A stretch of DNA of 64,000 nt, taken from IMG/VR virus record IMGVR_UViG_3300045988_162656, one strand, 5' to 3'. Within the stretch, counting starts at the first letter, position 1. Each line of letters starts with the position of its first letter. The notes beneath the pieces are model-generated. The model ran no database searches and was not told the DNA's origin. It was given only the letters and a program-made list of their open reading frames with translations. Source of the DNA: a virus. Its lineage: Duplodnaviria > Heunggongvirae > Uroviricota > Caudoviricetes. The position numbers were made by a program, and so were the translations under genes. Positions 6,528 through 58,424 of the stretch are shown piece by piece.

Positions 6528-6666
6528 ATGTTTTCCTTAATGCTTAAACAAGTTGTTTTCTTATTGGCTTTATTGTGATGTGGCATAAAAGGGGAGCAAG
6601 CTAAACGTAAAGGTGCAAACTCTCTATTTCGGTCAACGAAACACAATGGCCATTTGACCCTTGTCA

Positions 6667-6825
6667 TTAACACGTTGCTTTACGGACTAGCGGATAAGCG
6701 AAGTAGATCGCCAGACCAATGAGGACGCCATCAGAAATGACAGACATCATCTTTCCCGTAAAATCCACCAACACCGCCATCACCAGAAGAGCAATGACGG
6801 TCACAAGCCGGAATCTCTCAAGCAT
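6667..6825 (-). CDS. small hydrophobic protein (~52 aa), translationally coupled to the TerB-like gene
   Basis: Hand-translated (MLERFRLVTVIALLVMAVLVDFTG...); ATG overlaps upstream stop as TAATG; not in ORF track. Confidence 0.3.
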   Translation of the reverse strand: MLERFRLVTVIALLVMAVLVDFTGKMMSVISDGVLIGLAIYFAYPLVRKATC

Positions 6826-7250
6826 TAGAGATAAACATCCAGTGACAACTGAAGCGCCTGGGCGATCTTTTTCAGCGCCTGCTCTTCTGGTTCATCAATG
6901 CCGTCTTGGTCGGCAATATCAAGGCACAGACAAAGTACATCTACTGCATCATCAGTCCCGGCCACATCCGCCAGCTCACGTAAAGCCTGGGCATTAGCAC
7001 GGCGCGGTGAGGCTTCGTATTGAGCGCGGATATTGGCGCTCATCTGGGCAATCTCACCAGCAAAAGGAGAAAATGCAGGCAGAGCTGCAATTGTTTTCTC
7101 AAGAATGGAAATTTCTTTTGCATCGCATGTACCGTTGGCATAGGAGATCATGTACCCACCCCACACGGTGGCTTCAACCGCATCACGGTTCTCCATTTTT
7201 TTGACTTCGATAACTGCTTTACGAGTTTTCTTTTTGAAGAAACCTAACAT
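6825..7250 (-). CDS. TerB-like domain protein
   Basis: Overall resemblance to TerB-family proteins (helical, acidic C-terminal region DQDGIDEPEEQALKKIAQAL); conserved initiation region upstream. Confidence 0.5.
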   Translation of the reverse strand: MLGFFKKKTRKAVIEVKKMENRDAVEATVWGGYMISYANGTCDAKEISILEKTIAALPAFSPFAGEIAQMSANIRAQYEASPRRANAQALRELADVAGTDDAVDVLCLCLDIADQDGIDEPEEQALKKIAQALQLSLDVYL

Positions 7251-7293
7251 GTGTTTTCCTTTTGTTATTGGTCAAAACAAGTTGTTTTCTAGT

Positions 7294-7323
7294 TAAATAA
7301 ATTGCTTACGCAAAGACGGTCAA
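7294..7323 (-). promoter_or_regulatory. candidate sigma70 promoter for the TerB-like operon
   Basis: TTGACC, 17-18 bp spacer, TTATTT/TATTTA on minus strand, followed by AAACAACTTGTTTT palindrome near predicted +1. Confidence 0.35.
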
Positions 7324-7343
7324 TGCATATGCACTAACAACCG

Positions 7344-7532
7344 TCAGAAATAACCAAGTACCGAACCGACTGGAAAAATAAAAATCCCAACTACACGAGC
7401 CAAGGTCATGCCAGCCTGAAACTGGAGATCGCCAGAGCAAACAAGTTTTATAATGTTCGATACCCAACCGGCGGCCATGAGGGCAAGAATTGCCAGCCAA
7501 ATTTTTCCAAAGTGATTTGAAAACCAGTTCAT
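7344..7532 (-). CDS. small membrane protein
   Basis: 62 aa, two hydrophobic segments; SD AAGGCGG upstream. Confidence 0.45.
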   Translation of the reverse strand: MNWFSNHFGKIWLAILALMAAGWVSNIIKLVCSGDLQFQAGMTLARVVGIFIFPVGSVLGYF

Positions 7533-8775: not shown

Positions 8776-9356
8776 ATAAACTCCTGAATCAAGCGCCGCG
8801 CCGATTTTTCCTCGCGCGTGCGCACACGCGTGCGTGTTAATAATTATTAAAATAAACAAATTACTTCCCAGAACAGGTTTTTATAAACCTGAACTGAACG
8901 AACGAAGTGAGTGAAGTTCACCTCGAACGAAGTGAGAGGTTGTCTTTTCAGGTAATACTCTCCCAGGGAGGTGAGTATAAAATTCCTCACCAACCTGGTC
9001 GTTTCATAACCTGAAAAGCTATGGTCTAAGTCTACTGCCAGCTTAGACTTGGGAAGTTATGGATGACAGCACCCCAGAACCGAGATCTTCCCACACTTTA
9101 TGAAGGGGAGTACTGGATTCAACCTCTCGAAACACCCCAGACTCGACAATCATAAAGTGACCCTTGTCTCCGCTCACTTTGGTTCCCCCTTCCCCGACAC
9201 CTAAACGGCACCGGTTCTACGCTGGTAGTGAGCTTTTTTAAACCTGACGCCAGTGACGCTTACCCCCACCCATCAGGTCGAGTCTCCAGTCTACGACTGG
9301 AAACTATCAGATCTTAGCACTTACAATTCATCTTATGAATAGTTTGTACTTATCTA

Positions 9357-10550: not shown

Positions 10551-11360
10551 TCATCCAATAGTGTACTCCGCGACAAACTTCTTAACGATCGGTGATTCTT
10601 CGTTCAATGTTAGATTTCCACCGTCTCTAACGGCAATTCCTGTAGCTGGAAATACAGCCATCATTTGCCCAGCCTGAGTTGACGCAGTGTTAAGCGGATA
10701 CGGTTTTTCTGGATTGCTCATTAAAGCAATCTTAATACTATTACTTGTAGCCTTCTTTTCTGTAAGAAGGTGTCTCATGGAAATTACCGTGTAAACACTA
10801 ATATCTGGACCTCCGCTAAACCAATTAAGAAGGTTTAATATCTTATCCTTCGCTTTGACAGGCGCGTTTTCGTAAGCGTCTAAGAAAATATCTTTTTCTA
10901 AGCCTGCTTTATTGAAAAACGAATCATCTTTATCACTTAAAGTAAAACTAGGACCTCTTGCAGCACGAGTTTTTTTATTTGTATTGCTATCATTTGACTG
11001 TTGAACTTTTAATTCATCATTAACCTCAACACAATCTTCAACCTCAATGATCCCCAACTGTTCTGGCTCATTTTCGGCAGCTTCACCACTTTCAGCGTTA
11101 ATTACGTTTATAGGCTCATGCGCTAACTCCAACTCATTTAAAGCAGAGCTGAAATCACCTGCTTTTTCTTCATTGAACAGTTCTTCGGCAACATCATCAG
11201 AACTCATGGCTACGCCAGCATCGAGGCCGAGAAGCAGATCGTCAATATCATCAGTATTTTCAACCTGTGCAGCTTTTTTTACTGGTTCATCAAGTGATTG
11301 CAACATGGCTGTCAGCTCATCCAGATCATCATTTGTCATTACATTTTCAACCGAACTCAT
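10551..11360 (-). CDS. hypothetical protein with strongly acidic N-terminal half
   Basis: ORF track; N-terminal ~110 aa very rich in D/E; SD GAAGGAGA upstream. Confidence 0.55.
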   Translation of the reverse strand: MSSVENVMTNDDLDELTAMLQSLDEPVKKAAQVENTDDIDDLLLGLDAGVAMSSDDVAEELFNEEKAGDFSSALNELELAHEPINVINAESGEAAENEPEQLGIIEVEDCVEVNDELKVQQSNDSNTNKKTRAARGPSFTLSDKDDSFFNKAGLEKDIFLDAYENAPVKAKDKILNLLNWFSGGPDISVYTVISMRHLLTEKKATSNSIKIALMSNPEKPYPLNTASTQAGQMMAVFPATGIAVRDGGNLTLNEESPIVKKFVAEYTIG

Positions 11361-17461: not shown

Positions 17462-17527
17462 GTGTTTTTCCTTTTGCTTTTTGATGTGTTTAAACAAGTT
17501 GTTATCCTATTTGTTTAAACAAGGCTT

Positions 17528-17561
17528 ACAAATCAAAGAGAAGGTGGGGATACACCCCACC
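17528..17561 (-). terminator. terminator between nrdA and nrdB
   Basis: Stem GGTGGGG/CCCCACC followed on minus strand by TTCTCTTTGATTTG. Confidence 0.55.
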
Positions 17562-30172: not shown

Positions 30173-30997
30173 TTAATATCCGGCGTATTCGTATTCTTCA
30201 TTTAGACCGTATTCTTGTGGAGTGATACCAGGACAACATAACTCAAAGGCGAACTTGCGCCATTTGATTTTTTCTTCTGACGATTGTTTGTTATTCGCCG
30301 GTGCAATGTAGTCATATTCCCATTTGCCGTTGCGAAGTAAAATGAATCCGCAGTTATTGCCGAAGTCTTCGTCTGCATAACGTATTACAAACTCAAGGTG
30401 CGGGAACTTTCTAGCCATCGCTTGATAAATTGGTTTTGGCATAGACCAGGCTGTTTCAAAGCGAATCACCAACTCACCACCAGTTGCGGCATGTCTTGCA
30501 AGACGTTTTTTATAGATTCGTTTTGCATATGCTCGAACGTGTGTATGGCGGAAATTATGGCCGTACTTAATACGTGTAGGGATACGTTTTACGGGCATTT
30601 CGATGTTGTAGGCATTCCATTTTGTTCCCCAATTAGCTCGCGACCAGTCAAACCATGAGTAATAGCCATAGCGACGATAATTCTCAAGCCGCATAAGAGC
30701 CTGCTCTTTGATTTTGCGAATTTCCTTGCGTGTCATTCCTGATTCACGCATAGCTAATTCGACCTGTTCTGGAGTCTTTAATTCACCGAACATGTGGTCG
30801 TAAACTGTTTCGCCCGCCATTGCAGAGGCCATGCGCCTGATATGATTGTTTTCTTCCATTTCTATACTTTTCGGACGTCTGCAAATGGTATTAAAGTCAA
30901 TTAGACCTTTTTTGTTAGTTATGGCACGTATGAAATCTAAGCGTTGTTTATTTGTACCACCTATGACTCGGATTTCGTTTGTAATGTGGTTGGGCAT
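30173..30997 (-). CDS. hypothetical protein
   Basis: ORF track; AAACAATTTGTT palindrome plus SD upstream; contains WFDWSRANWGTKWN block that I cannot place. Confidence 0.5.
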   Translation of the reverse strand: MPNHITNEIRVIGGTNKQRLDFIRAITNKKGLIDFNTICRRPKSIEMEENNHIRRMASAMAGETVYDHMFGELKTPEQVELAMRESGMTRKEIRKIKEQALMRLENYRRYGYYSWFDWSRANWGTKWNAYNIEMPVKRIPTRIKYGHNFRHTHVRAYAKRIYKKRLARHAATGGELVIRFETAWSMPKPIYQAMARKFPHLEFVIRYADEDFGNNCGFILLRNGKWEYDYIAPANNKQSSEEKIKWRKFAFELCCPGITPQEYGLNEEYEYAGY

Positions 30998-36269: not shown

Positions 36270-39200
36270 TCACGTCTTAATGGTTTCTGCTACGTCGGCT
36301 AATATCGCTTCTAGTCGTTCTCCCTCTTCAGGTCTGAAGTAAAGAATGTTGGGGTTAAACCCGTAAAAGACAGTAACGTCAAGGTCTGGAAGGTACTCCT
36401 TCCTGCCGACCAAATCGGATGGCTTGTTTTTGTTGTTAAACAATGCCGTTGCCCGGCTGCCACACGTCAGCACATAGGTCGGACGCACCAGATTGATCTC
36501 TTCACGTATAAAGTCGGTGAACTGGCCGATCTCGTCTTTGGTGTAGTCTTTTTCTTTGTCTTTAACCTTCTTGCAAACGCCTGTGACATAGAGATCGCCC
36601 ATGCGTAAATCTCCAGCCGTCAATAGCTTGGCCTTAAAGTCGTCGTATCCGTTCTCCATAAAGTAACCGGTTCGAGCATCATTGCCGTTCGCATTGTCCA
36701 GAATGATCATGATTTTCGGCTTAATGCCAATGCTAGGGCGGATTAGTTCATCACCTAATCCCATTTCAGCCGCCATCCGTGTCATGAGCACGTTAATCTC
36801 AGCCGAACGTTTGGGGTTCATCTCAAACGGACGTGAGGCTTTAACTGCGTCTATGACAAGGTTTCCCATCAATTCAGCCTGGTCGCGGAGACGCTCTGGA
36901 TCAGTTGCTGGCAGACTACCTGGCTCGATGGATGCAAACGCACCTACTTTTTGCAGTGATTCGCGCACTCGACTATTACAGGCACGTTTCTCGACAGCTT
37001 CTTCGAATTGCGCCAGTGACTCGAATTTGCCGCCAACTTTTTCTCGCGCTCTCATGATGGCTTGGCAGCCATTCTCAGAACACCCTTTCACAGCAGAGAA
37101 GGGCGCATACAGCACCTGGCTGCCATCTTCAAGCGTGCGGATCTCGATTCGGTTAGATGACACGTTAACGTCTGGTGGCAATACGCGAATACCATAGGTC
37201 AGCGCATCTTTAACCAGCCCCTGGTGTTTATCTTCGCCAAGAATAGTGAGAGCAGCAGCGAAGAACTCCGCGGGATAATGAGTTTTCAACCACATAGATT
37301 GATAACTGATTAAGGAGTAAGCAACAGAGTGTGATTTGTTGAACTGGTAGGCACCATTCTTTTCGAATGCGGTCCAGATCTCCTTCGCTTTCATCTCTGA
37401 TAGCCCTGGATGTGACGCTGTAACGCGTACTGCGTTTATAGGTAGTTTTGCGCCGTACTCAAGTGCCTCTTCGACAGTTTTCAGAGTTCCGTCTTCGCAT
37501 TTAAAATGTTCCGCACGGTGAATGCGCTGTGTAGTGCCATCTTCCAGCTCAACGTCTATCCAGCCAGCTTGAGCCTGAACGATGAACTTCTCGCCCATGC
37601 TCTTCATTTTTTCCATGTCTTTTTTGCCGATCGCTTTACGAACGCCGTCAGCTTCAGCCATTGTGAAGCCAGCAAGCAATCGAGTCGCGTTCATCGTCTG
37701 TTCCTGATAGAGAATCACGCCATTTGTTTCTGCGGTAAGTTCATCAAGAACGGGGTGTAATGATTCCGGCGTCATAAAGCCTTTGGCTACAGAAACATAG
37801 TCATCCAACATGCCTGACTGAATTGGCCCCGGCCGGAAGAGCGCAGTCGTAGCAACAACCGTTTTAAAGCTCATTGGCTCAATTCCACCACCTAAATCTT
37901 TAAGCAGCTTGCGCATTGGGCCTGATTCAAGCTGGAAAACACCTTGAGTGTACCCAGCAGCAAAACCATCCAGCACCTTGCGATCTTCAAGAGAAATGGC
38001 ATCAAGATTGATATCTTCACCTGTGTTCTCTTTTATGTAGCGTTTTGCACTATCGAGCAAATCGAGAGTTGCCAGACCAAGTACGTCCAGCTTAATTAGG
38101 CCCATAGCCTCGCAGTAACGCTTGTCAAATGCGATACAACGCGCGTCACCACGGCGTTCAACCGGTGTACGTTCTGTCAGAGGAACACCTGCTACGATCA
38201 TCCCTGCCGCATGTCTACCAAAGCCACGCATAAGACTTTGTAACTTGCAGGCAGCATTGAATGCATCAGGGTATTTTGTCGCGTATTTGTCGAGACTTGC
38301 CAGTTGTTCGCGCAGCTCCTCCAATGGAAGGCTATCATCCTCGACGTTCTTCAGCTCTTTTGATACCGCCATATCTGCGGACTCCACACCATAAATACGA
38401 GCGGTATCACGTAGTGCTGAGGCTGCGCCCAGGTAGGTGAAGTTCGGAATGCCTGCAACGTAATCTTCGCCGTAGCGTTCATTCAGATACTCGATCACCT
38501 CATGGCGACGTGCCTGGCTGAAGTCCAAGTCCGCATCCGGCAAGTCGAGACGCTCAGGGTTGATGAAACGCTCAAACAGAAGACCGTGACGGATTGGGTC
38601 GACGTTGGTTATGCCTATGCACCACGCCACCAGAGAACCGGCAGAGGAACCACGACCAGGCCCGACAGGAATGCCAGTTTCACGGCTGTGATTCATCAGA
38701 TCGCGTACCATCAGGAAGTAACCACAAAATCCCAGGCGAGTCAGCGTGTCCATTTCGTACTTTAGCCGCTCAACATAAACCCTGTTCTCAGAAGCAGGTG
38801 GTGTGTAGCCAAACTCTTTTGTGGTAAGACGTTTACGCAGCCCTGCAACAGCCAGTTTCATAAGCGTTGCAGGCTCGTCGTCTGCCATCTTTGGCAGTGC
38901 TGGTGGCAATTCATGCCAGCGCCATGTGCAGGCATCGATAATGGTATCCTGCGTTGTTGAGGCCATTGCAGCTGTTACCGGCACATCCATGCGAACGGAG
39001 AAGGTTTTCAGCGCCTCAAGGAGATGGCGGCGACCATTGACGGCGTTATCTCGCTGGTGGGGGATACGCAGACGATGCGGCTGGTCGATTTTGATGTTGT
39101 TCGTAACCATGTGCGCAATGTCTTTAATGTCTGCATCGTCGATCGATTCGTAATAAGCGGGATAGAACGCCACTGGCTCTATTTTCAATGCGCTGGCGAC

Positions 39201-39788
39201 TTTCATCGCCCGGACGTTAATCTGGTCGTAGAATGGGGTAGGGTGCGGATAAACCACACTATAGAAGTTGTCTTTTCCACCCGCTGTAATCAGTGTGCTT
39301 ATGATTTTTGCAAAATCGTTGCGTTGGAACACGCTACCGATGTCGGAAGTGAGCAGGATGATGTTGCCTTTGGCATATGTAGAAACCAACTGTTCGAGCG
39401 AGAGACGCGGTACAAAGTAGAACTGTTCTCGTGTGTTGGCCACCGTCATTAGTTCGCAGATGTCGCGATATCCTTGCTCATTTTTAATTAGAGCGGTAAA
39501 CGAGTAGTTACGTCCTCGCTCTAATGATTCCATACATCCCTTAGACTCTTTAGCAATTTTAGCCCGGTACTCGTATGTGGGATCATCAACAATGTTTAGT
39601 TTCACACCACAAATAACCGCCATGTCGTCACCAGCGGCACGTTGTAGTGGAATAACACTCGCAATATTCATGCTATCTGCCGAAATTACAGCGGTGTAGC
39701 CAGCTTCTCTGGCAATCTTCACCGCGTTTTCTGCTTTTAGAGCCGACTCCCCAAGAGAGAAGTCAGTTCGAACCATCAGAGCCTTCAT
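36270..39788 (-). CDS. dnaE: DnaE-type DNA polymerase III alpha-like replicative polymerase
   Basis: 1172 aa; block GFCGYFLMVRDLMNHSRETGIPVGPGRGSSAGSLVAWCIGITNVDP typical of DnaE family. Confidence 0.9.
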   Translation of the reverse strand: MKALMVRTDFSLGESALKAENAVKIAREAGYTAVISADSMNIASVIPLQRAAGDDMAVICGVKLNIVDDPTYEYRAKIAKESKGCMESLERGRNYSFTALIKNEQGYRDICELMTVANTREQFYFVPRLSLEQLVSTYAKGNIILLTSDIGSVFQRNDFAKIISTLITAGGKDNFYSVVYPHPTPFYDQINVRAMKVASALKIEPVAFYPAYYESIDDADIKDIAHMVTNNIKIDQPHRLRIPHQRDNAVNGRRHLLEALKTFSVRMDVPVTAAMASTTQDTIIDACTWRWHELPPALPKMADDEPATLMKLAVAGLRKRLTTKEFGYTPPASENRVYVERLKYEMDTLTRLGFCGYFLMVRDLMNHSRETGIPVGPGRGSSAGSLVAWCIGITNVDPIRHGLLFERFINPERLDLPDADLDFSQARRHEVIEYLNERYGEDYVAGIPNFTYLGAASALRDTARIYGVESADMAVSKELKNVEDDSLPLEELREQLASLDKYATKYPDAFNAACKLQSLMRGFGRHAAGMIVAGVPLTERTPVERRGDARCIAFDKRYCEAMGLIKLDVLGLATLDLLDSAKRYIKENTGEDINLDAISLEDRKVLDGFAAGYTQGVFQLESGPMRKLLKDLGGGIEPMSFKTVVATTALFRPGPIQSGMLDDYVSVAKGFMTPESLHPVLDELTAETNGVILYQEQTMNATRLLAGFTMAEADGVRKAIGKKDMEKMKSMGEKFIVQAQAGWIDVELEDGTTQRIHRAEHFKCEDGTLKTVEEALEYGAKLPINAVRVTASHPGLSEMKAKEIWTAFEKNGAYQFNKSHSVAYSLISYQSMWLKTHYPAEFFAAALTILGEDKHQGLVKDALTYGIRVLPPDVNVSSNRIEIRTLEDGSQVLYAPFSAVKGCSENGCQAIMRAREKVGGKFESLAQFEEAVEKRACNSRVRESLQKVGAFASIEPGSLPATDPERLRDQAELMGNLVIDAVKASRPFEMNPKRSAEINVLMTRMAAEMGLGDELIRPSIGIKPKIMIILDNANGNDARTGYFMENGYDDFKAKLLTAGDLRMGDLYVTGVCKKVKDKEKDYTKDEIGQFTDFIREEINLVRPTYVLTCGSRATALFNNKNKPSDLVGRKEYLPDLDVTVFYGFNPNILYFRPEEGERLEAILADVAETIKT

Positions 39789-39968
39789 GTGTTTTTACCT
39801 TTCTGGTTTTTTTGATTTTGTCATTGGGGAAGCCTACGAACTTCCCATACATCGAAATCGCAACTTCTTTTGCTGATTGGTGACAATCGGGCTTGTCTGG
39901 ACACACCAGGCAAGCCTTGCCAGTTTCAGAAGCAGCGATAAGAGAGCCGAAACATCCTTTACGCACGA

Positions 39969-41204
39969 TTAACCAAATATTTTTTGAACAACTTCACGTG
40001 CCGCTTGCGCAGAAGCTGAAGGGAGTTTGTTAATGAAAGAACGCTCAATACCTGTCACAAAGTCGCCTCGCATCATTCCAATCTTGGCCGACAACAAAAG
40101 TTCACGAGGGCCAATCGGCTGACTGATCAGGTGTTCTTCGTATCCATCGCGAACGATACCGGCAAACTTAACCATCTTTTCAGCGTATTCATCCACGATG
40201 CCAGCATTTATCAACATGCTGATCTCTGCCTCTTTGCTCATGTATTTCACATTCGAAACGATGCCAAAACGCGAAAAGTTAGCGGCGTTCTGGATGTTTG
40301 TACCCTGGTACAAGCCGGTTTCATCACCAGATCCGTTCGTGTTGCCAGTGCCAATGAAAGCAAACCGTTCATGCGGAGTAATGCGACGCCATTCTGGAGT
40401 CGCCTCTTTGATGACCAACGCTTCACCTTCCAGCACTGGCTGATACACGCCAAGAATCTGTGGAAACGCAAAGTCGTATTCATCCGCGAGGTAAACCCAG
40501 CCATGCTTCATTGCGAGCGCAAGCAAGCCAGGCTCGAAATACGTAGAGCCATCACGCGCCAGAATTTGTCCCGTAACATGAGCCTCTTCCATTGATGCTG
40601 TATGTTGGGCACGGATTAACGGACGATTGAGCAAAGCACATAGTTGTGTAGGCAATGAAGATTTGCCTGTTCCTGCATGACCCCACAAATAGCCTGGTAT
40701 GCCAAGTTCAAGCATCATGAAAATGTCTTTGATCAGTTCGAAGTCGCCATATACGTATCCCTTCTTCACTTCTGGAACGAACTCTGGAAACGGCGTATTG
40801 ACGTTGACGCTAACCATGAGCGGCGTCCCACGTTTTGTTCCGAGTTCTTCCACCGTTACGTTTAGCAGTTCGTGAGCTGCGACCAGATCTGTCTTGTACT
40901 CAACTGTGCCTGTGTAGCCAGGGCTACTGGTCAAGCCAGAAGATTTGGCCATTTCGCTTTTTTGCTCGGCACGTTTAGCTTGAATTGCATCAAGTGCCTT
41001 TTTCGATAGCGTTGGTTCATCTGGAAACTGCGTTGTGTACATTTTCAGTACGGTGTCAGGATCGGCATCTTTTACTGACTCAGGAATGCCCTCGCAATTA
41101 CCATTGGCTACATGGGACTTAAAATAGTGAAATGATTTGCCGCACCACTTGCAAACAAGGTAATCAGAAGGATTTTTTTCATTTTGCAGTGCAGTAGTCG
41201 TCAT
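39969..41204 (-). CDS. CobS/MoxR-like AAA+ ATPase
   Basis: Walker A GHAGTGKSS; size and layout like phage CobS-like proteins. Confidence 0.7.
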   Translation of the reverse strand: MTTTALQNEKNPSDYLVCKWCGKSFHYFKSHVANGNCEGIPESVKDADPDTVLKMYTTQFPDEPTLSKKALDAIQAKRAEQKSEMAKSSGLTSSPGYTGTVEYKTDLVAAHELLNVTVEELGTKRGTPLMVSVNVNTPFPEFVPEVKKGYVYGDFELIKDIFMMLELGIPGYLWGHAGTGKSSLPTQLCALLNRPLIRAQHTASMEEAHVTGQILARDGSTYFEPGLLALAMKHGWVYLADEYDFAFPQILGVYQPVLEGEALVIKEATPEWRRITPHERFAFIGTGNTNGSGDETGLYQGTNIQNAANFSRFGIVSNVKYMSKEAEISMLINAGIVDEYAEKMVKFAGIVRDGYEEHLISQPIGPRELLLSAKIGMMRGDFVTGIERSFINKLPSASAQAAREVVQKIFG

Positions 41205-41299
41205 GCGTTTTTCCTTTGTTCTCTAATGAGCGTTCAACTTCTTATATAAATATACCATTAACTATCGTAAGTGGTTACTTATCATTAAGGCTGTTTTAT

Positions 41300-43408
41300 T
41301 CACTTCAAAATGATACGAGATAGTTCAGTAACTACAGATGAACCAAGACTATCAACGCTCGTTACCAGGGCATGATTTGAGTAAAATCTCTCCGGTGCGT
41401 CAGTCATGATGCCAATTGCCATCAAATCAATGTCAGTCTGCGTTTCAATTTGCTTCGCAACCGAACGCAAATGAGCGTCAAAATCTCTCCCAACAGCCCA
41501 CGGCGCGCCATCGCTCAGAACAAGCATGATCTTCCTGTCCTCCAAGCGACCGGAAAATAACGATGCAAGGCTGGCTATGCTTTCACCATCCACGTTATTA
41601 AGAAGTGGGAATGTGTAGCCTACGCACCCCATACGTGAGCGAACTTCGCGAGAATTTACCTTTTCATTCCAATTTTTGATGATAGGTAGCATTAAAGATT
41701 CAAAGCGAGAGAACTCATACTTGACAGCCTTAAGTTCTCCTGCCGCCATATGACTACCAAATGTAGTGAAGCCGGTGATAATGTTGGGAACATTTATTCG
41801 ATCAAGAGCATCGGCGATGGTATATGCACTTGCAAGAGCCAATTGTATCGTTATACCACTCATTGAACCTGATAAATCAATAACTTGTTGAACACAGGCG
41901 TTAACGGCTTTAGATTCTTCTTTTTTACGAAACACGCGATCATCATTCATTGCTAATCTGTAGATACTAGAACCATGAATGCGCCCCCGACGCTGGCCCG
42001 GTATAAACTGAACTCTGTTTCTGCTTGCTATTGCTCGCTCCAGGTCTTTTGCCAGCGTCGACGAAACACCTGACGAAAGATGCTTTTCAATATATTTGTC
42101 GAAGAGCTGGTTGCCTTCAGGAACGATGCGATAGCGGCTGATTGGATATCCTCCTAAATCAATATCGGAGAATGTTTTAATAAGCCGTTTGATATGGGCT
42201 TCTGCCTGATCAATCGAGCCGATGAAGTCGTATGAGCGATTGTATGGCCTGTATTCGCTTTTCGAGCTTTCTGTTAACTCGCTTTTAATCGTTTCGGATA
42301 GAGCATCTTCTGTCATGCCTCCGACTTCATCTTCTATGCTATCCAGCTCCTCTAAAGCCTCTTCCAGACTTATTTTTGACGGAGTTGGAATATCTGAAGA
42401 GCCGTCTTCTGTCGTTTTTCTTTTTTCGTGGTCAGCGGTTAATGATTCTGACGCCGCGTTATCAGAAGCATCAGAATCTGATACCTCTTTATCATTTTCT
42501 GTATCATCGAATATTGTTTCTGATGATTCAGAATTATCTGAATCATCACTGTCGTTAATATCATGTTTGTGCTTACTGTGTGATTCAGATTTGATAGATT
42601 TGTGGCTATCTAACGCTTCGGGTGTCTCATGATCTCCGTTGTCTTCATTGTTTTCTCCAGAGGCATCCGTCTGGTCAGCGTCTGAAGGATCGGGTGTTTT
42701 TCCCGGAGCTGACTCCTTACCTTTGCTTTCACTTTCAGTGTCTTTGAGGATCTTAGCTATGGTCGCAGCCACCTTTACACAATCCTCGGTGCAGGACATG
42801 TTACGCACGGCCACATCGATACCATGTTCTTTTAATAATGAAATTGGTTTCTCAATGACAGGCCAGTATTCATCCATGAAATCTACGAACGGTGCTTGGC
42901 CATCCCAGGCTCTTACAACCGGACAGAGAAAGAAGTTTAGAAAAAGCGCGCGCTGATCTTTGCCACAATAAGCAATAGCCTCTGAAGCCTTTGGTTTAAA
43001 GACTTTTTCGATTATAAGGCGCTGAGTTGCCATCAGATTACGTCTCGTTCCGTTAAAGACCTGCCCCATTTTTCGCTCGATGAACACGTCTTCTAATGCA
43101 TTCCATAGTGACCGGGAAGGAACGCGTCCTTTTTCTCTCATTTTGTTGGACACACGAATATCGGTAAACAAAATGTGAGCAACCTCATGATCGAGAAATC
43201 CGCGCACAGCATTCATCAATGCCGGTGTTGCGTTATCCGGAATTGATGGGATGTTTACGAGAATTGGCTCTCCATCATCGTTATAGCGTACATAAGCGTC
43301 GTCTCCTCGTTCTGCAACAGGGATGTTTTTACCTGAAAGGAGAGCGACTACTCGTTTTACACTGTCACGGAAGTCCTGAACCTCTTTGATGGAACGTTTT
43401 TTAGACAT
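41300..43408 (-). CDS. von Willebrand factor A domain protein (CobT-like) with acidic Ser/Asp-rich central region
   Basis: MIDAS motif DLSGSMSG in C-terminal region; adjacent to AAA+ ATPase. Confidence 0.65.
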   Translation of the reverse strand: MSKKRSIKEVQDFRDSVKRVVALLSGKNIPVAERGDDAYVRYNDDGEPILVNIPSIPDNATPALMNAVRGFLDHEVAHILFTDIRVSNKMREKGRVPSRSLWNALEDVFIERKMGQVFNGTRRNLMATQRLIIEKVFKPKASEAIAYCGKDQRALFLNFFLCPVVRAWDGQAPFVDFMDEYWPVIEKPISLLKEHGIDVAVRNMSCTEDCVKVAATIAKILKDTESESKGKESAPGKTPDPSDADQTDASGENNEDNGDHETPEALDSHKSIKSESHSKHKHDINDSDDSDNSESSETIFDDTENDKEVSDSDASDNAASESLTADHEKRKTTEDGSSDIPTPSKISLEEALEELDSIEDEVGGMTEDALSETIKSELTESSKSEYRPYNRSYDFIGSIDQAEAHIKRLIKTFSDIDLGGYPISRYRIVPEGNQLFDKYIEKHLSSGVSSTLAKDLERAIASRNRVQFIPGQRRGRIHGSSIYRLAMNDDRVFRKKEESKAVNACVQQVIDLSGSMSGITIQLALASAYTIADALDRINVPNIITGFTTFGSHMAAGELKAVKYEFSRFESLMLPIIKNWNEKVNSREVRSRMGCVGYTFPLLNNVDGESIASLASLFSGRLEDRKIMLVLSDGAPWAVGRDFDAHLRSVAKQIETQTDIDLMAIGIMTDAPERFYSNHALVTSVDSLGSSVVTELSRIILK

Positions 43409-48282: not shown

Positions 48283-48357
48283 TGGCGATGGTGGGTGGAT
48301 TCGAACCACCGACCAGTTGGTTAACAGCCAACTGCTCTACCGCTGAGCTACACCATC
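48283..48357 (-). tRNA. tRNA-Asn (anticodon GUU)
   Basis: Acceptor GATGGTG/CACCATC, D-arm GCTC-AGCGGTA-GAGC, anticodon arm GTTGG-CTGTTAA-CCAAC, T-loop TTCGAAT, CCA. Confidence 0.85.
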
Positions 48358-52474: not shown

Positions 52475-53656
52475 TTATGATAGAGCCTTAATGCCCAAAA
52501 CCTTGCTTTGCAACTCCAACTGTTTGGTATACGGTTTTGCCCGATAATAGGCTTTGATAATTTGTTCTGGCGTTGCACCGCCCGGGTCGAGTCCTTCCTC
52601 ACCCAAACACGCAACTTTGACATTAAGACCGATACTGGTCAGTCGCCTGGCTGCGGCCATCGTGTTGCGTATAGCTTGCTTTTCACTATCCCACATCATG
52701 ATCACATTACGTAATCCACGCGCCTTGAGCGTCAGGAACGCGCCCAACTGATCTTCTGCATCCTGAGTGGTGTTGCCAGATAGATGCATCCCGAACGTTC
52801 CTATTGGCTCCACGTAATCACGTAATGTTTCTTCGTCGAAAATAGCTCGTTTGACCCCCATAACATCGAACGCACCCTCACAGACAACTACAGTCTGTTT
52901 GCCGACTGCATTATGGCCGTTGTAGAGAAATTTACCTGAAGCTGGAAGCTGCATAGGAAAGAGGTAGCGGCGTTCTGCTGTACCGGTAATGTCTCGTCCC
53001 TGAAATGTCTTCATTACCCCATCCAGATCGTAAACCGGTATCAGTATTCGCATATCGAATATCTGCCCTTTTACCTGATCTGTATACGGATCTACATAAG
53101 CGTGCTTGCCTTCGACGCAGTATCGTAGGTCAAAATACTTTGCCATTTCAGGTGATATGTTTCGTTCAACCAGATAATCTGGAAGACGGCCATCTATAGG
53201 AAGCTCGTAATGACGAGGGAGTGCAACTGGCCCCTCTAACTCGACTGTGCTTGCAAGCACTAGCTCTTCTTTCTTTGGTGCCCACCCCTGGGAAAGAAGA
53301 GCGTTCTGCACATATTCCTCGAACTGTCGTCGTGATTTACCGCTGTAGTGCTTGAGGAAGACCAGCTTATTGAACTGAATCTCTTCGGGATGATCACCAG
53401 CGAAGCATTTGCCGACGCCACTGGTCAGATTGAAATATACCTTCCAGTTGGAGCTGCCGCATACCGGACACTCCTTGATATTCACTTCACGACCGCGAGT
53501 ACTCACGCCTCCACGTCGATAAACGATACCTTCAGTATCCAACCATTGTTCAAAATCTAATTCGGCAATTAGCTCTTTCAGCTCGCTCACGATAATTCCA
53601 CTTTTAACAGGCAATATTGTGACCAATCTAAATGTTGATATAACATAAAGGCTCAT
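52475..53656 (-). CDS. DNA primase (zinc-ribbon + TOPRIM)
   Basis: Zinc ribbon CPVCGSS...KCFAGDH and TOPRIM-like VVVCEGAFDVMGV; start set at MSLYV with conserved initiation region; ORF track 52475..53728 trimmed. Confidence 0.8.
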   Translation of the reverse strand: MSLYVISTFRLVTILPVKSGIIVSELKELIAELDFEQWLDTEGIVYRRGGVSTRGREVNIKECPVCGSSNWKVYFNLTSGVGKCFAGDHPEEIQFNKLVFLKHYSGKSRRQFEEYVQNALLSQGWAPKKEELVLASTVELEGPVALPRHYELPIDGRLPDYLVERNISPEMAKYFDLRYCVEGKHAYVDPYTDQVKGQIFDMRILIPVYDLDGVMKTFQGRDITGTAERRYLFPMQLPASGKFLYNGHNAVGKQTVVVCEGAFDVMGVKRAIFDEETLRDYVEPIGTFGMHLSGNTTQDAEDQLGAFLTLKARGLRNVIMMWDSEKQAIRNTMAAARRLTSIGLNVKVACLGEEGLDPGGATPEQIIKAYYRAKPYTKQLELQSKVLGIKALS

Positions 53657-53737
53657 GTGTTTTTCTTTTGTGGTTTGGCAAAAGAAAAGTTGTTTCACCA
53701 ATGAATCAAGCGTGGAGGTGTTCTCCACGCTTATTTT

Positions 53738-55078
53738 TTAGGTAACGTCTAAGATTCGCTCAATGAAGCGCATTTGTTCGAGGTTTTGTTTAACGCGAAT
53801 GCTGATCCCTCCCTGCTGGTTACGTGAACCAGCAAAGTAGAGACGAGCCTCTCCTTTCGCTTCTTCTTCTTCGGTTTTGTTGATCGTTATTACCAGGTCA
53901 GCAATACGTACTTTTTCGATGTTGTCGGCAGCGTGCATCATTGTGGCAACTTCTGACGCGCCACCTTCACGGTTTGTCTGCGATGCCGTGATCCCAGCAA
54001 CGTTATGCTTGTCATAAAGAGCACGTAAATCGGTGTAGATACTACGAATGTTGGCGCGATCATCACGAAGGTCATAACTGGCACGCATCAAATCTGCGTA
54101 GTCGACAACAACCATGTCAGGCACCATGCCGTTGGCTTTCATGCTGTTAAGCATACGGTCCAGATCTGCCGGTGACATACTTCCTGACGGACGCTCAACC
54201 ACCCACAAACTACCAATCCCCTTCGTGGCTCCCAACTCTGCCAACTTACGATGAACCTCATCGCGCCGTTCCACCAGCTTGGACATTTCTGTCTCCGACA
54301 ATCTTGCATCAAAACGGTCGGATAAAATGGTGGTGTGAACCTCCAGCGAGAGATACAGAACATTGTAGCCAGCAAGCGTTGCGTTTATGGAAAACTCACC
54401 CATTGCGGTCGATTTACCGGATTTAGCGAACCCCATGAAGAGCACCATTTCACGCTTCGCCCAGCCTTTTTGGTACAGCAACCTATCGAGCAGAGGGAGT
54501 CCAGTTGTAATGCTGTTTGGCACATACTCCTCTGAAGCCTCATATTCACGCGCTTTCAATCGCTCACTTGCGGAGGTGTAGTAGTCATAGATTCCGGTCG
54601 CTTCGTTCGATCCAATCTGCTGAACCTTAGCCATGATTGCCATCGCTCCCTGAAAGTCGCCTTTCTCTTTCAGTTCAGCAGCCTTAATCAGAGCATCATC
54701 AAACGCTACACTTTTTGCGAAGGTTGATACCTGGTCAACCATGTACGAGGTATCGGACAATTTTTCTGCAAGAATGCGCTTAAACGCAGCAACAACATCG
54801 GCGAATAGTTCCTCACGGATAGTCTTATCGCGTTTCGCACGCTTAAGCATATCCAGAATTGCAGATGAAGAGGGCGCGCTCTTGTACATACGGTAATAGC
54901 CCGAAACCATATTAACCAATATGGCATTGGCCGCATTGGCAAATTGGCTAGGCACAACCAGATCTCCCGCACGAGTAAGAAACTCGTGATCACGACAAAA
55001 ATATGCCGTCAGTCTGTTCTGGAAATCTTCATCAAACTCTTCGGACAGCCCGCGTCCTGTATGGCAAAGTTCTGTCAT
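53738..55078 (-). CDS. DnaB-like replicative helicase
   Basis: Walker A GFAKSGKST and downstream RecA-fold blocks; conserved initiation region. Confidence 0.8.
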   Translation of the reverse strand: MTELCHTGRGLSEEFDEDFQNRLTAYFCRDHEFLTRAGDLVVPSQFANAANAILVNMVSGYYRMYKSAPSSSAILDMLKRAKRDKTIREELFADVVAAFKRILAEKLSDTSYMVDQVSTFAKSVAFDDALIKAAELKEKGDFQGAMAIMAKVQQIGSNEATGIYDYYTSASERLKAREYEASEEYVPNSITTGLPLLDRLLYQKGWAKREMVLFMGFAKSGKSTAMGEFSINATLAGYNVLYLSLEVHTTILSDRFDARLSETEMSKLVERRDEVHRKLAELGATKGIGSLWVVERPSGSMSPADLDRMLNSMKANGMVPDMVVVDYADLMRASYDLRDDRANIRSIYTDLRALYDKHNVAGITASQTNREGGASEVATMMHAADNIEKVRIADLVITINKTEEEEAKGEARLYFAGSRNQQGGISIRVKQNLEQMRFIERILDVT

Positions 55079-55121
55079 GTGCTTTCCTTTGTTTTTTAAA
55101 CAAATTGTTTTCTAGTATTAG

Positions 55122-55862
55122 TTAATTAGATAGGGGATCAATAAACCGCCGTGCTTCTTCCAGTTCTTCTGGAAAGTGGGCGGAAATAAGGCGCTCTGGA
55201 ACGATTTCCATTAGCCAGATAGCGGAGAAAATTGCGCGTATGCGCTTGCTGCGAGGGATGGTGCGCAAACACTCCAGAATCCACTCAAAATAGCTTTCCT
55301 GAATCGGGTTGAACTGCATGTCTCCCATATGCTTAAAGCTAACAAGAGAGTCATCCAGACGGGTTGTTGCGCGTCTGGCTAATTTCTCTTCGAATATCTC
55401 AACCAGCTCTGGCTGCCACAAATGCTGTGGGCGCGGCAGCTTGTCCCACAGCCGTCGTGCAGCTGCGGAAAGAACGGTGGAGATAAAGTAGTCGTATGAG
55501 CAGCAATAGCGGTCAGCAAACTGGCGTGCTTTCCATAGAGACGTTTTATTGGCAGTCGACAACTCCTGATAAGGCAGGCGTTTTAACCCGGTGGTGAACG
55601 GAGCTGTTTCAAAGTGTTCGCGACCGTGCGTCAGCATGATATTTGAGTACTGACGTTTGTATGCCTCCGTAAACAGACAGGTGGCCATAAGAGGATGCAT
55701 GTCTCGGTAATCAAACCACTTCGTCTCGAAGAGTTCAGCCTCGTCTTTACAGCGCGACAAACCAATGTTTTCAGCGACCCACTTGTCCATAACAGCGGTA
55801 TTCCACTCTGTCATGAAGTCGTACTGGTCGTTGTCGATGGTATCGAAAAAGATTTGGCTCAT
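55122..55862 (-). CDS. hypothetical protein (possible helicase-associated replication factor)
   Basis: ORF track; GTG at 55871 rejected in favour of ATG 55862 with SD AGGTGA. Confidence 0.5.
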   Translation of the reverse strand: MSQIFFDTIDNDQYDFMTEWNTAVMDKWVAENIGLSRCKDEAELFETKWFDYRDMHPLMATCLFTEAYKRQYSNIMLTHGREHFETAPFTTGLKRLPYQELSTANKTSLWKARQFADRYCCSYDYFISTVLSAAARRLWDKLPRPQHLWQPELVEIFEEKLARRATTRLDDSLVSFKHMGDMQFNPIQESYFEWILECLRTIPRSKRIRAIFSAIWLMEIVPERLISAHFPEELEEARRFIDPLSN

Positions 55863-56136
55863 GTGGCTCACCTGGTAGGTAGTTACTTACTTATCACAAT
55901 GGACGGATGATAGCGACTGGTGTCAGTTTTTGGAAGTGAAAACGGAAGGGAGTTGTTCTGGTGGTGTCTTTTAAAAGACCTGCTTCCGTATATATTTAAT
56001 AAGTTACTTATTATTTATATACAGAAACAGGCTCCTAATGGATACCAAGAACAACATAATTTGACTCCAACTCCAGATGCTATGTCATTGACAGATTTAT
56101 CAAGGGAGATCATGTTAGAATTAGTGTTTTAGCCTC

Positions 56137-57210
56137 GTGGATATTGTCACCATGCGCATGAATAGACTTCCAGGATATGGCCTTCCCGAACTGGCTTTTT
56201 GGCCTCAGCCTAAATATGAACGGAATAAATGGTCGATGTTCTGTCTGAAACTCCGTAATGATGGAACCCTTGCTTGGTATCGGCGATATGTTGATCGTGG
56301 TATGCCAAACCACGCTGTTGATGACGACTACGATAACTATCCTGAAGCAAGAAAAGCGGCATTAGAGCTGAATAAAAACGTGAGCTTTGACATTGAAAAA
56401 CTTCCTCTATCTATGTTTCAAAAGAAGTCATTGCGTTTGAAAGTTGACAAAGCACTCAAAGCCAAATCACGTCTCATGGATGAAGAGTATATAATGCTCA
56501 ACGAAGCAATTAAGGCACACGCCAACGATCCGCGAGTGACATTAAATGAGTTAATAATTAACCCAGATTACGAAACTTTGCGTCAACCCCTTTTTGACGT
56601 GCTAAGCGAGATGCCTTACTTACATTTTGTTTTTCTTCCCAAATTCCAAGTTTCACTTCAACTCGTTGCTCCTAACACTTGGGAATGTTCATATAACAAC
56701 AAAGCTAAGACAGCGAAGATCTGCTACCAAGAACGCATAGCCAGAGGTTTTGGTTTATCAGGTGCTGCACATTGGGGAAAAACAAAAGCGACTATTCGCT
56801 CAATGCTTCTGCCGCGTGCTAACCGGTTACTGCAACTCGCCAGCGTAAAAAGAATGCTGGATGAAGCTCTCAGGAATGGGCAAAAGGTACTGGTTGTTGG
56901 CAACTTTGTTTTCTGGTTTGAGGACAAAAATCAGGTAGGTTGGAGTGTTAAAGTTGCTAGCGAAAGCGAAACCACCTCAAGAGGCAATACGCTCTGGAAA
57001 GAAGGAACTATCATTTCAAAAAATCACGGTCGAATTGTCGTGCTGCCGTATACAAAAGAAAACGGTAAACATGTAAAAGGTTATACCAAGAATGCCCCTA
57101 ACGACGGCAATGCAATTCCGAGACATAAGGATGAGTATGTTGAGTTGCCCTTTGAAATTTTGGATGGTGACTTGATGTTCAGTCTGTTCGGTGAGCTTAA
57201 CTACGAATAG
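56137..57210 (+). CDS. hypothetical protein (plus-strand, opposite to surrounding operons)
   Basis: ORF track; start ambiguous (GTG 56137 or ATG 56152/56158); preceded by a 6-codon ORF with strong SD. Confidence 0.45.
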   Translation: MDIVTMRMNRLPGYGLPELAFWPQPKYERNKWSMFCLKLRNDGTLAWYRRYVDRGMPNHAVDDDYDNYPEARKAALELNKNVSFDIEKLPLSMFQKKSLRLKVDKALKAKSRLMDEEYIMLNEAIKAHANDPRVTLNELIINPDYETLRQPLFDVLSEMPYLHFVFLPKFQVSLQLVAPNTWECSYNNKAKTAKICYQERIARGFGLSGAAHWGKTKATIRSMLLPRANRLLQLASVKRMLDEALRNGQKVLVVGNFVFWFEDKNQVGWSVKVASESETTSRGNTLWKEGTIISKNHGRIVVLPYTKENGKHVKGYTKNAPNDGNAIPRHKDEYVELPFEILDGDLMFSLFGELNYE

Positions 57211-57270
57211 CTTTCATAGAACGAAATATTTCTAAGGCTGTCCAATGCAGACCAGCCTTAGAGATTTATA

Positions 57271-57630
57271 TCAACCTTTCTTCATTAACTCGCGTTTAAT
57301 TTCATCGGTACGCATCGTGACATCGGCAGCAGTGATCGCCTCGTTAAGCTTCACGATGTCCTCGATTTCCTGCGGTGACTTCTCTGCCAGATGGAAAATA
57401 GCAGCACGAATCACATCAGAGCGGGTGAATTTCTCGAAGCGAGGGATGAACTTCATCATCTCCAGCAGTTCGAAGTATTCGTCCTCCAGTGACATTGTGC
57501 GGCTTTTAATTTTCTCTTTGCCACGAGTCGGGCGTCCCTGTGGTCTGACTGGTTGGCGCAAAGGAGTTGTGTTCTTAGCCGGTGCATCAGACTCTTTGCG
57601 CTTTGCTAGGTCACCCATTTTCATGGACAT
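57271..57630 (-). CDS. ribbon-helix-helix partition protein (ParG/ParB-like)
   Basis: C-terminal RHH-like segment FTRSDVIRAAIFHL; immediately downstream of parA, TAATG overlap. Confidence 0.5.
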   Translation of the reverse strand: MSMKMGDLAKRKESDAPAKNTTPLRQPVRPQGRPTRGKEKIKSRTMSLEDEYFELLEMMKFIPRFEKFTRSDVIRAAIFHLAEKSPQEIEDIVKLNEAITAADVTMRTDEIKRELMKKG

Positions 57631-58298
57631 TATTCTTCTTCCTCCAGACTCAACAGATAATCTACAAATTCTTCAAACTCGGCTTCCGCCTTTTTGTCGC
57701 GCTCGCTACCGGTCATTTCAAAGATAGAACGACCAGACTCTTCCGCATCATCATAGACGTTGCGGTTATATAGATTGACTGGCGCAGACTCGATGCCAAA
57801 CGTCTCAACAATCTCTTTAGCCGCCAGAATGCGAGACACTTGTGATGGCAAAGCCGGGCACTGGTTCATGACCGCGCGGACCTTCACTTTATCGTTTACA
57901 TTGCGAACATTGTCGATAATAGGATCGATGTCACGTAAAGATTTCAAATCACGACGCTTAGGACGCAGCGGGATAATGATAACGTCAGCCATCAGCATCG
58001 CTTGTCGCTGAATTTCGGAGTCGAAGCCACCAGCATCTACCACTACAAACTCAGCTCTACCCTGAAGCGATTTTAGGTGCTTAATGATGTCATCCTGAAC
58101 GTATGCAAAAGGAATCAGCTCAAGGTCTTCGTTCTGTCGACGGTCTTCACACCAGCTCGTTGTCGTGCGCTGAATATCTATATCGGTAATATAAACCTTC
58201 TTCTTCTTTTTGACTTTCAGGCAAACGGCAATTTGCTGGGCAACGGTGGATTTGCCAGGCCCGCCCTTTGTGCCGCCAACCACAAAGATCTTGGTCAT
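57630..58298 (-). CDS. parA: ParA-family partition ATPase (small, type Ib)
   Basis: Deviant Walker A GGTKGGPGKST; 222 aa. Confidence 0.8.
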   Translation of the reverse strand: MTKIFVVGGTKGGPGKSTVAQQIAVCLKVKKKKKVYITDIDIQRTTTSWCEDRRQNEDLELIPFAYVQDDIIKHLKSLQGRAEFVVVDAGGFDSEIQRQAMLMADVIIIPLRPKRRDLKSLRDIDPIIDNVRNVNDKVKVRAVMNQCPALPSQVSRILAAKEIVETFGIESAPVNLYNRNVYDDAEESGRSIFEMTGSERDKKAEAEFEEFVDYLLSLEEEE

Positions 58299-58424
58299 TG
58301 GAGAGTTTCCTTTGCGTCTATTATTATTGTCTGAAACAACTTGTTTTCTTATATGTGATATAGCCTAAATGCCTACGGCTGCTGTGTAAAGGTTTAATGA
58401 TAGGTACATAGATTTGGTAAGGAC

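Follow-up and report, generated by a model that had tools for sequence, protein, structure and literature searches.

The stretch of viral DNA analysed here (hereafter the window) is the 64,000-nucleotide IMG/VR record IMGVR_UViG_3300045988_162656 (Caudoviricetes), and the element in question is a 13-base palindrome, AAACAAnTTGTTT, formed by the arms AAACAA and TTGTTT around a single central base and found ahead of several operons of the window. Judged from its sequence, the window is an SSU5-type phage-plasmid. A megablast of positions 53000-59000 showed ~98% identity to the Escherichia phages PhiR41_1 and Cyrano, 82% to the Salmonella phage SSU5 and ~78% to Klebsiella phage-plasmids. The relatives are annotated as siphovirus-type plasmid prophages which carry nrdAB, thyX, a DnaB-like helicase, a primase, dnaE, a cobT/cobS-like pair and parA together with tail and lysis genes. 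Nearly all of the genes in the window are held by the minus strand. The window is the reverse complement of PhiR41_1, running from ~23.2 kb through the record origin to ~67.4 kb; it spans only part of that genome and is therefore without the region which holds most of the small early genes and several regulators. Phage-plasmids of the SSU5/pHCM2/pMT1 type occur commonly in E. coli, Klebsiella, Enterobacter, Salmonella and Yersinia of clinical origin, and their marker genes are carried by roughly 800 PLSDB records. The related elements that were compared include L012, L014-L017 and L034-L037, where L017 is the Moellerella wisconsensis phage-plasmid and L034 and L037 are divergent Klebsiella lineages; PhiR41_1 is L005 in the same series.

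Sites of the palindrome in the window

A total of four exact copies of AAACAAnTTGTTT were found in the window where 0.12 were expected, and none of 100 shuffles reached four. With up to one mismatch allowed, eight sites were found against 0.57 expected, the largest shuffle holding three. The original prediction, made from the letters of the window alone, had placed this palindrome ahead of six operons, and these counts confirm that it is real. Six of the seven places that it gave were correct to within 1-3 nt. The seventh, a supposed second copy upstream of nrdB at 17511..17522 (minus strand), reads TTGTTTAAACAA with the arms in inverse order; SSU5 and pJN2-26 do not preserve it as a dyad, and it is not a member of the set. 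Two genuine copies had been overlooked, at 43428 in front of the cobT-like/dnaE operon and at 2003.

All eight sites fall in gaps separating long open reading frames of the minus strand, and on this gene-sense strand the element extends asymmetrically to (A/T)AGA-AAACAAnTTGTTT-A. Seven of them are located 16-35 nt before an ATG having a Shine-Dalgarno sequence, in agreement with the predicted placement between promoter and ribosome-binding site. The exception at 2003 spans the -35 region of the next promoter and belongs to a second class which the prediction had not foreseen.

The exact copies are located at 6546-6558, 7275-7287, 55098-55110 and 58334-58346, each read on the minus strand as are the remaining sites. 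The dyad at 58334 (AAACAAGTTGTTT) lies in the leader of the parA operon, 35 nt before the ATG (58298) of its first gene, parA (57630..58298, minus strand), which encodes a small Walker-type ParA/MipZ-like ATPase of 222 aa. A promoter candidate, TTTACA-N17-TAGGCT, spans 58362-58390 and the dyad is found 15 nt after its TAGGCT -10 candidate. Orthologous dyads were observed at the parA promoters of SSU5, pJN2-26, L014/15 (one mismatch), L016 and L036 (one mismatch). The copy at 55098 (AAACAATTTGTTT) is 19 nt before the ATG (55078) of the gene for the DnaB-like helicase, downstream of which is the primase gene (52475..53728, minus strand). Its arms are kept in SSU5, pJN2-26, L014, L016 and L036 as the flanks diverge, and the dnaB dyad of PhiR41_1 has a perfect TATAAT 14 nt upstream. 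The remaining two exact copies are both AAACAACTTGTTT. One, at 7275, precedes a TerB/TciA-like gene (6825..7250; ATG at 7250) by 24 nt, with a promoter candidate TTGACC-N18-TATTTA at 7288-7323 and an orthologous exact site in pJN2-26; the other, at 6546, is 18 nt before the ATG (6527) of a gene of unassigned function (5958..6527, 189 aa), with a CACAAT -10 candidate 13 nt upstream.

The one-mismatch copies were found at 2003-2015, 17492-17504, 31014-31026 and 43428-43440. The dyad at 43428 (AAATAATTTGTTT) precedes by 19 nt the cobT-like gene (ATG at 43408), with which a cobT/cobS-like/dnaE operon begins (36270..43408, minus strand); it follows an extended -10 box TGCTACATT (43453-43461) by 12 nt, and SSU5, pJN2-26 and pMT1 have exact copies at the orthologous position. 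The dyad at 31014 (AAACAATTTGTTA) is 16 nt before ATG 30997 (gene 30173..30997) and begins 11 nt after the -10 box of a promoter TTGGAC-N16-TATTAT, the -35 box of which is inside a terminator hairpin (31057-31074). The copy at 17492 (TAACAACTTGTTT), 30 nt before the nrdB ATG (17461), is downstream of the nrdA terminator hairpin (17543-17561), and SSU5 carries an identical T-for-A variant. The site at 2003 (AAATAAATTGTTT) directly follows a hairpin (2016-2036) and is located 19 nt before an extended -10 box TGTGAAAAT (1978-1986) which belongs to the promoter of gene 1386..1928, and it therefore covers the -35 region. In addition, a decayed copy with two mismatches (AAACAAATCATTT, 4914..4926, minus strand) was noticed before a DUF4942 gene (3213..4898), where the orthologous promoters of SSU5 and pJN2-26 have exact dyads.

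Just upstream of the cobT promoter, a separate hairpin CTGCGCGAA-N15-TTCGCGCAG was noticed at 43462-43494 (minus strand). Its counterpart in SSU5 and pMT1 is CTGTACGAA...TTCGTACAG, a compensatory double change which suggests a conserved structure or possibly a second dyad.

Promoter cassette and register of the dyad

In the early regions of the relatives, the dyad was observed within a recurring cassette made up of a stem-loop, a weak -35 box, GCCTTTT, an extended -10 box (TGnGATAAT or TGnGAAAAT), ~13 nt, AAGA-AAACAAnTTGTTT-A and a Shine-Dalgarno sequence, with a leader that begins AAGAAAACAA. Across 54 sites in three genomes, grouped solely by the position of a -10-like hexamer, a first class of 25 sites has the -10 box upstream at a spacing of 11-16 nt, with 18 of these sites at 13-14 nt, which places the dyad at ~+7 to +19. 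A second class of 11 sites has the -10 box downstream, at exactly 19 nt in nine of them, such that the dyad is found at ~-44 to -32 across the -35 region. The flank which faces the promoter core is AGA in 21 of the 25 sites of the first class and TCT in eight of the 11 sites of the second. These triplets are reverse complements and therefore the full unit, AGAAAACAA, is used in either orientation; the 19-bp duplex which contains the dyad is AGAAAACAAnTTGTTTTCT. Promoters with two dyads, 51 bp apart, were also observed in PhiR41_1 (30177/30228) and SSU5 (88319/88370).

Within the window, the sites at 31014, 43428 and 6546 fit the first class well and the site at 2003 is a clean example of the second. 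The promoter hexamers at 58334, 55098, 7275 and 17492 are less clear, and these dyads are likely to lie at or just after the transcription start. The distance between dyad and -10 box was found to be fixed, whereas the distance between dyad and ATG ranges from 16 to 35 nt.

The two divergent Klebsiella lineages L034 and L037 hold 12 and 11 dyads in about 20 and 13 kb respectively, almost all of them in the -35 register, and in their leaders only the half-site AAGAAAACAA remains at +1, or nothing. Dyads in this register are outside the transcript of their own promoter, which argues for a role at the level of the DNA, by occlusion, and not for an RNA leader element.

Pairing within the transcript was also found to be weak. 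The dyad hairpin alone has a folding energy of -0.7 kcal/mol, and the folding of whole leaders does not surpass that of shuffles. Each variant alters one arm only, the left in some cases and the right in others (TAACAA, AAATAA, TTATTT, TTGGTT and TTGTTA), and no compensatory pairs were seen among the dyad variants of the window and relatives. It is the sequence, and not the pairing, that stays conserved in the dyad. A structured RNA element or riboswitch was considered and rejected, as there is no stable fold and no covariation, and an Rfam scan of the window gave no match at the dyad sites. As a side observation, AACAA(A)GG, which is complementary to the right arm (UUGUUU), is found at the Shine-Dalgarno position of the leaders 7251-7274, 43409-43427 and 55079-55097. 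The predicted fold of the dnaB leader pairs this segment with the right arm at -2.3 kcal/mol, which is weak and may be coincidental.

Conservation in related elements

Counting in relatives gave 17-20 copies per complete element at up to one mismatch (SSU5 19-20, PhiR41_1 18 and the Klebsiella element pJN2-26 17). According to the annotation of PhiR41_1, 17 of its 18 dyads are intergenic. When all inverted repeats with 6+6 arms were counted in the complete PhiR41_1, AAACAA-N1-TTGTTT was found nine times exactly and any other at most three times. Sites in the complete relatives are mostly ahead of small early genes without known function and are also found at the terminase operon. The regulon of nucleotide metabolism, replication and partition genes that had been proposed is therefore too narrow. 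Among the exact-pattern matches listed from IMG/VR, chance matches were mixed with contigs of about 100-112 kb.

At the orthologous promoters of parA, dnaB, cobT, nrdB and the CYRAN_87-like gene in the E. coli, Salmonella and Klebsiella elements, both arms were observed to be invariant and the central base and flanks to vary. The prediction was to fall if such conservation were absent, and the arms are kept. This conservation extends to elements in which the protein encoded after parA is 48-64% identical or a protein of the FljA family (discussed below) is 59% identical. The Moellerella phage-plasmid is syntenic with these elements and has no intergenic dyad, only a relic with two mismatches at parA. 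It retains promoters of the ATAAGAAAACAA type without the right arm; therefore the dyad is separable from the promoter and is an addition which travels with the FljA-like gene.

Two further arrangements of the dyad were noticed in the relatives. An isolated dyad which follows a conserved GCTCCCGTTGCGTTA is found in PhiR41_1 (30906), SSU5 (90740), pJN2-26 (25869) and L012 (18928), within a long stretch which has few genes and no evident promoter cassette. Furthermore, directly before the gene for the terminase small subunit there is a pair of dyads with a spacing of 25 bp, and after the pair a GC-rich hairpin and a run of T (PhiR41_1 45676-45760, SSU5 56-120 and pMT1 19735-19800). The latter arrangement resembles a late-operon leader with a terminator, and hence antitermination control is possibly involved.

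Expression in lysogens and the operator model

Expression values are available for Cyrano, a relative which is ~98% identical over the 70% of the query 53000-59000 that it covers and which is not this exact sequence. In the RNA-seq table of its LF82 lysogen the median is 9.8 (PMC9928086). The dyad-linked genes are silent, near that background: helicase 21, primase 10.6, nrdB 12.9, cobT 7.8, CYRAN_85 7.0, CYRAN_87 7.1 and CYRAN_58 5.7, with the parA operon at 50-89, i.e. 5-9 times the median (PMC9928086).

From the existence, excess, placement and conservation of the dyad together with the silence of the genes downstream of it, we infer repression which acts on the DNA. Promoters with an extended -10 box should work alone and yet they are silent, and therefore a bound repressor is the simplest reading. 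On balance, the dyad is probably an operator for an element-encoded repressor of a genome-wide early regulon. An operator for a dimeric regulator had been predicted, and the operator part agrees with arms which are conserved as sequence, with the lack of compensatory changes and with the fixed -10 register.

In such a model, a two-fold symmetric repressor encoded by the element would bind the dyad and block binding or escape of RNA polymerase. About twenty early transcription units would be held at background in the plasmid (lysogenic) state, including those for nucleotide metabolism, DnaB/primase and cobT-dnaE, many small early genes and the terminase operon, and the parA operon would be held low. 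Upon infection or induction these promoters would fire by means of the host sigma-70 RNA polymerase. The dyad would then offer a handle on the lysogeny switch of these elements, with a regulon of ~20 promoters and two candidate regulators.

The FljA-family protein as candidate repressor

Our preferred candidate for the binder, put forward tentatively, is a protein of the FljA family (PF03614, 1.3e-68; CYRAN_114 / SSU5_121), whose gene is located outside the window at 37192..37710 of PhiR41_1. Its operon is oriented against the lytic genes, and the gene is expressed in Cyrano lysogens (log2 7-8 in most conditions). Homologues are found almost solely on contigs of 100-115 kb and on 835 plasmids including the Yersinia plasmid pMT1; members of this family, named 'repressor of phase-1 flagellin', are thus nearly confined to phage-plasmids of the SSU5 type. 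Every dyad-bearing lineage examined has an FljA-family gene, down to 35% and 25% identity (hhalign probability 97%). In Moellerella, tblastn found nothing resembling the FljA-like gene and the protein in the matching gene slot is unrelated. Among the annotated genes common to PhiR41_1, SSU5 and pJN2-26 and missing in Moellerella, the FljA-like gene is the only regulator-like one. An AlphaFold model of the protein (pLDDT 81) has two tandem Sm/Hfq-like barrels which could read the two arms of the dyad, although such barrels are not a classical reader of duplex DNA. A search by sequence found no solved structure for the family.

The fliC leader of Salmonella and Citrobacter was found to contain CAAGTTGT inside CCAATAA...TAAGGAAAA, as do leaders of the window. 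It reads ...CCCAATAACATCAAGTTGTAATTGATAAGGAAAAGATCATG and resembles leaders such as GCCAATAAGAAAACAACTTGTTTAAGCATTAAGGAAAACATATG. The chance of finding CAAnTTGT in a 62-nt leader is estimated at roughly 0.004, and the dyad geometry in fliC differs. A broader proposal, which we regard as doubtful, is that the FljA-like protein is the master repressor of SSU5-type elements acting through ~20 promoters, possibly reading AAACAAnTTGTTT both as DNA and as leader RNA, with Salmonella FljA being a domesticated copy and the fliC leader mimicking the operator. If FljA-family proteins do bind the dyad, a home function would be given to a family known only from flagellar phase variation, and an Sm-like protein would, unusually, serve as the repressor of a prophage.

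Several observations weigh against a repressor-operator system of this kind. The silence in lysogens fits equally with promoters which need an absent activator. Four of the eight window sites are without a convincing -10/-35 pair, promoter positions having been read from hexamers, and a consensus promoter scan of 54900-58600 gave no promoter on the minus strand at either parA or dnaB. For Salmonella FljA, a post-transcriptional action on fliC mRNA has been reported (PMC2652032). The FljA-like protein drifts to 25% identity and the dyad is unchanged; relatives in which the protein is 59%, 35% and 25% identical share an identical dyad, such that no switch of specificity was seen. The co-distribution of dyad and FljA-like gene rests on one dyad-less genome known to lack the gene. 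No dyad adjoins the FljA-like gene, and autoregulation of this gene through the dyad was accordingly rejected.

The parA partner as candidate repressor

A second-ranked putative binder, less likely than the FljA-like protein and on the whole unlikely, is encoded directly after parA (57271..57630, minus strand). This protein of 119 aa has a basic disordered N-terminus followed by IKSRTMSLEDEY...FTRSDVIRAAI, and it is probably a ribbon-helix-helix protein, a ParG/omega-like partner of a type Ib ParA. A Pfam search with it gave no match. A full HMM (hidden Markov model) search showed its family to be narrow, with 18 clusters, and Pfam RHH_8/RHH_1 to be reached at threshold by the distant members; an AF2 monomer has a pLDDT of 65, and both Foldseek and a PDB profile search were empty.

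The corresponding alternative is that the dyad is the binding site of this protein, which would autoregulate parA, act as a global repressor and perhaps use the dyads as a dispersed centromere. Partners of type Ib ParA such as ParG and omega normally bind operators at the parA promoter and autoregulate there, and the parA promoter of these elements holds just one conserved dyad, the AAACAA one. Down to 48% identity no change is seen in the putative DNA-reading strand, IKSRTMS, the family reaches the RHH_8/RHH_1 models through its distant members, the orthologue is expressed at ~9 times background in Cyrano lysogens and the partner gene is present on 797 plasmids. However, the distribution of the dyad does not follow that of the protein. 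Moellerella keeps parA and its partner (KSRTVSMEDEY) and yet has no dyads, only the parA relic. L035 (IRSRTFSL) is without a dyad before parA and L036 (IRSRTISL) has one, so the strand does not track the dyad. Being nearly invariant in lineages with and without dyads, this strand gave no covariation signal. Furthermore, pMT1 has lost parA and its partner, has the FljA-like gene and keeps six dyads, which is weak evidence since pMT1 is a very recent derivative. An array of repeats upstream of parA in the style of type Ib centromeres was looked for and only the single dyad was seen. As the ribbon-helix-helix fold is also unconfirmed by Pfam or PDB matches and has a low-confidence model, we consider this alternative improbable.

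Other sequences were noticed near the parA genes of the two elements without an intact dyad there. Upstream of parA in Moellerella (L017 ~11105-11170) there is an inverted pair, AGAAAAC/GTTTTCT, ~33 nt apart, together with a direct repeat of AAATAACAAGGC close to the Shine-Dalgarno sequence; both are possible alternative sites for the parA partner. In L035 (~9010-9040), a near-perfect SOS box, TACTGTAATTATATACAGTA, is found between a divergent S24-peptidase gene and parA.

Some other factor may account for the remaining probability. One such factor, the product of the HTH (helix-turn-helix) gene at 43969-44355 of the window (CYRAN_45), was rejected as binder. It has ATGATATA repeats of its own, and the module which it forms with the integrase is absent from the dyad-bearing SSU5. 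The gene is a weak HTH match by Pfam and PHROGs and is expressed in lysogens. Its ATGATATA repeats (ATGATATAGATAAGTTCAATTATGATATA) are located at 43772-43800, between the HTH gene and a divergent gene for 70 aa which adjoins the integrase, and this module looks like a separate CI/Cro-like switch.

Readings of the dyad without an element-encoded DNA binder

An operator acting in the RNA was also considered, in which AGAAAACAAnUUGUUUA at ~+7 of the leader would be bound by the FljA-family protein, with translation being blocked or the transcript destabilised. Membership of the FljA family and the tandem Sm/Hfq-like fold would suit such a protein, the repression of fliC by FljA is described as post-transcriptional (PMC2652032), the fliC leader shares the CCAATAA..CAAGTTGT..TAAGGAAAA arrangement, seven of the eight window copies are in leaders 16-35 nt before the start codon, and several leaders have AACAA(A)GG at the Shine-Dalgarno position able to pair with the right arm. 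This reading does not explain why copies of the upstream class are fixed at 19 nt before the -10 box, outside the transcript of that promoter, nor why most promoters of L034 and L037 have the full dyad in the upstream place only. Conservation is equal in the two arms, which remain exact reverse complements, a feature not required for recognition of a single strand, and there is neither a stable structure nor covariation. It is the -10 distance that is fixed and the start-codon distance that varies. An RNA-level operator is thus judged a little less probable still than binding by the parA partner.

It is very unlikely that the dyad has no dedicated binder and is only the best-conserved piece of a duplicated, recombinogenic promoter-terminator cassette similar to the PeSLs of T4-type phages. 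The whole cassette (hairpin, GCCTTTT, TGnGATAAT and AAGAAAACAA) is indeed repeated before many small genes in a variable region, and PeSLs are strong sigma-70 promoters with stem-loops which mediate shuffling (PMC2839356). However, the arms outlast the -10/-35 boxes and the remainder of the cassette, down to about 25-60% protein identity, the dyad is also found at promoters outside the cassette (parA, dnaB and cobT) and as a tandem pair before the terminase operon, and the ATAAGAAAACAA-type promoters of Moellerella do without the right arm.

A host transcription factor of the Enterobacteriaceae, or an activator binding near -38 at promoters without a -35 box, is equally remote: the dyad-bearing elements are all from Enterobacteriaceae or Yersiniaceae and the dyad-less one is from Morganellaceae, and the upstream class is centred near -38, close to the positions of class II activators, but most copies are at +7 to +19, where activation is not expected, extended -10 promoters should be active unaided, and we know of no E. 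coli factor with this consensus, the nearest being KdgR (AAACAnTGTTT) with a different arm spacing.

Other features of the window

The dyad is distinct from a second motif, GATAGGTA, as had been stated in the original prediction. Eight occurrences of GATAGGTA were found in the window against 0.9 expected (3207, 8165, 10379, 19941, 28118, 41681, 51583 and 58399). As the dyad ATAGGTA-N6-TACCTAT, it ranks second in frequency among the dyads of PhiR41_1. Unlike the AAACAA dyad, it is kept in Moellerella as TAGGTA/TAAGTA-N6 variants. Rfam matches in the window are IS009 at 61417-61615 (minus strand, 225 bits) and two tRNA genes at 48114-48186 and 48286-48357, both on the minus strand.

Comparison with known systems

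No description of the motif, of a repressor of SSU5-type elements or of how their lytic programme is held off was found in the searchable literature, and as far as could be checked the dyad is previously undescribed as an operator-like element. The C1 repressor of the phage-plasmid P1 is similar in general plan: one element-encoded repressor acts at many operators over a plasmid prophage of roughly 100 kb, and every operator overlaps an early or accessory promoter, that of a dnaB analogue among them. Likewise, many copies of one motif are found here at early promoters (eight in the window and 17-20 per relative) and the target genes are off in the Cyrano lysogen. The C1 operator is an asymmetric 17-mer, ATTGCTCTAATAAATTT, whereas the site here is a perfect dyad of 13 bp, and no C1-like annotation is present in four annotated relatives.

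The KorB operator OB of IncP plasmids, TTTAGCSGCTAAA, is also a 13-bp palindrome with 6-bp arms and a free centre, present in about a dozen copies, one class of which is at ~-39/-40 and thus covers the -35 region. KorB is an HTH protein of the ParB family whose sites coordinate replication, partition and other operons. The dyad described here shares the 13-bp palindrome, the free centre and a class over the -35 region (~-44 to -32). It differs in sequence, and the two ParB_N genes found here are silent in the lysogen and are also present in the dyad-less Moellerella.

Omega of pSM19035 binds the centromere and also represses, globally, operons for copy number, partition and toxin-antitoxin functions; the sites of omega and ParG (TP228) are repeats of 7 bp or 4 bp arrayed upstream of parA. 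In the present elements, too, the gene for a small ParA is followed by one for a small ribbon-helix-helix-like protein. In contrast to those arrays there is a single dyad here, and it is not co-distributed with the protein (Moellerella, L035 and pMT1).

The PeSL cassettes of T4-type phages combine a stem-loop with a strong sigma-70 early promoter in front of small genes in variable regions (PMC2839356, PMC4122927). A repeated cassette of stem-loop and predicted sigma-70 promoter is found here as well (window 2016-2036 and 31057-31074). Here, however, no part is better conserved than the dyad, which is also found at unique promoters of core genes, and PeSLs are not described with an operator dyad. 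With the FljA/fliC system (PMC2652032) the relatives share a PF03614 protein encoded by the dyad-bearing replicon. The target of FljA is located between promoter and Shine-Dalgarno sequence, a position which holds for seven of the eight window dyads and not for the upstream class, predominant in L034 and L037. Only a single target, an mRNA, is known for FljA, whereas ~20 sites are found here, some of them outside the transcript; the fliC element, moreover, reads ATCAA-N7-TTGAT, a different dyad.

As far as can be seen, the dyad set belongs to none of the C1, KorB and PeSL systems, since its sequence and, as far as visible, its binder differ. It would instead represent a conserved operator-like element which defines the early regulon of a clinically common family of phage-plasmids.

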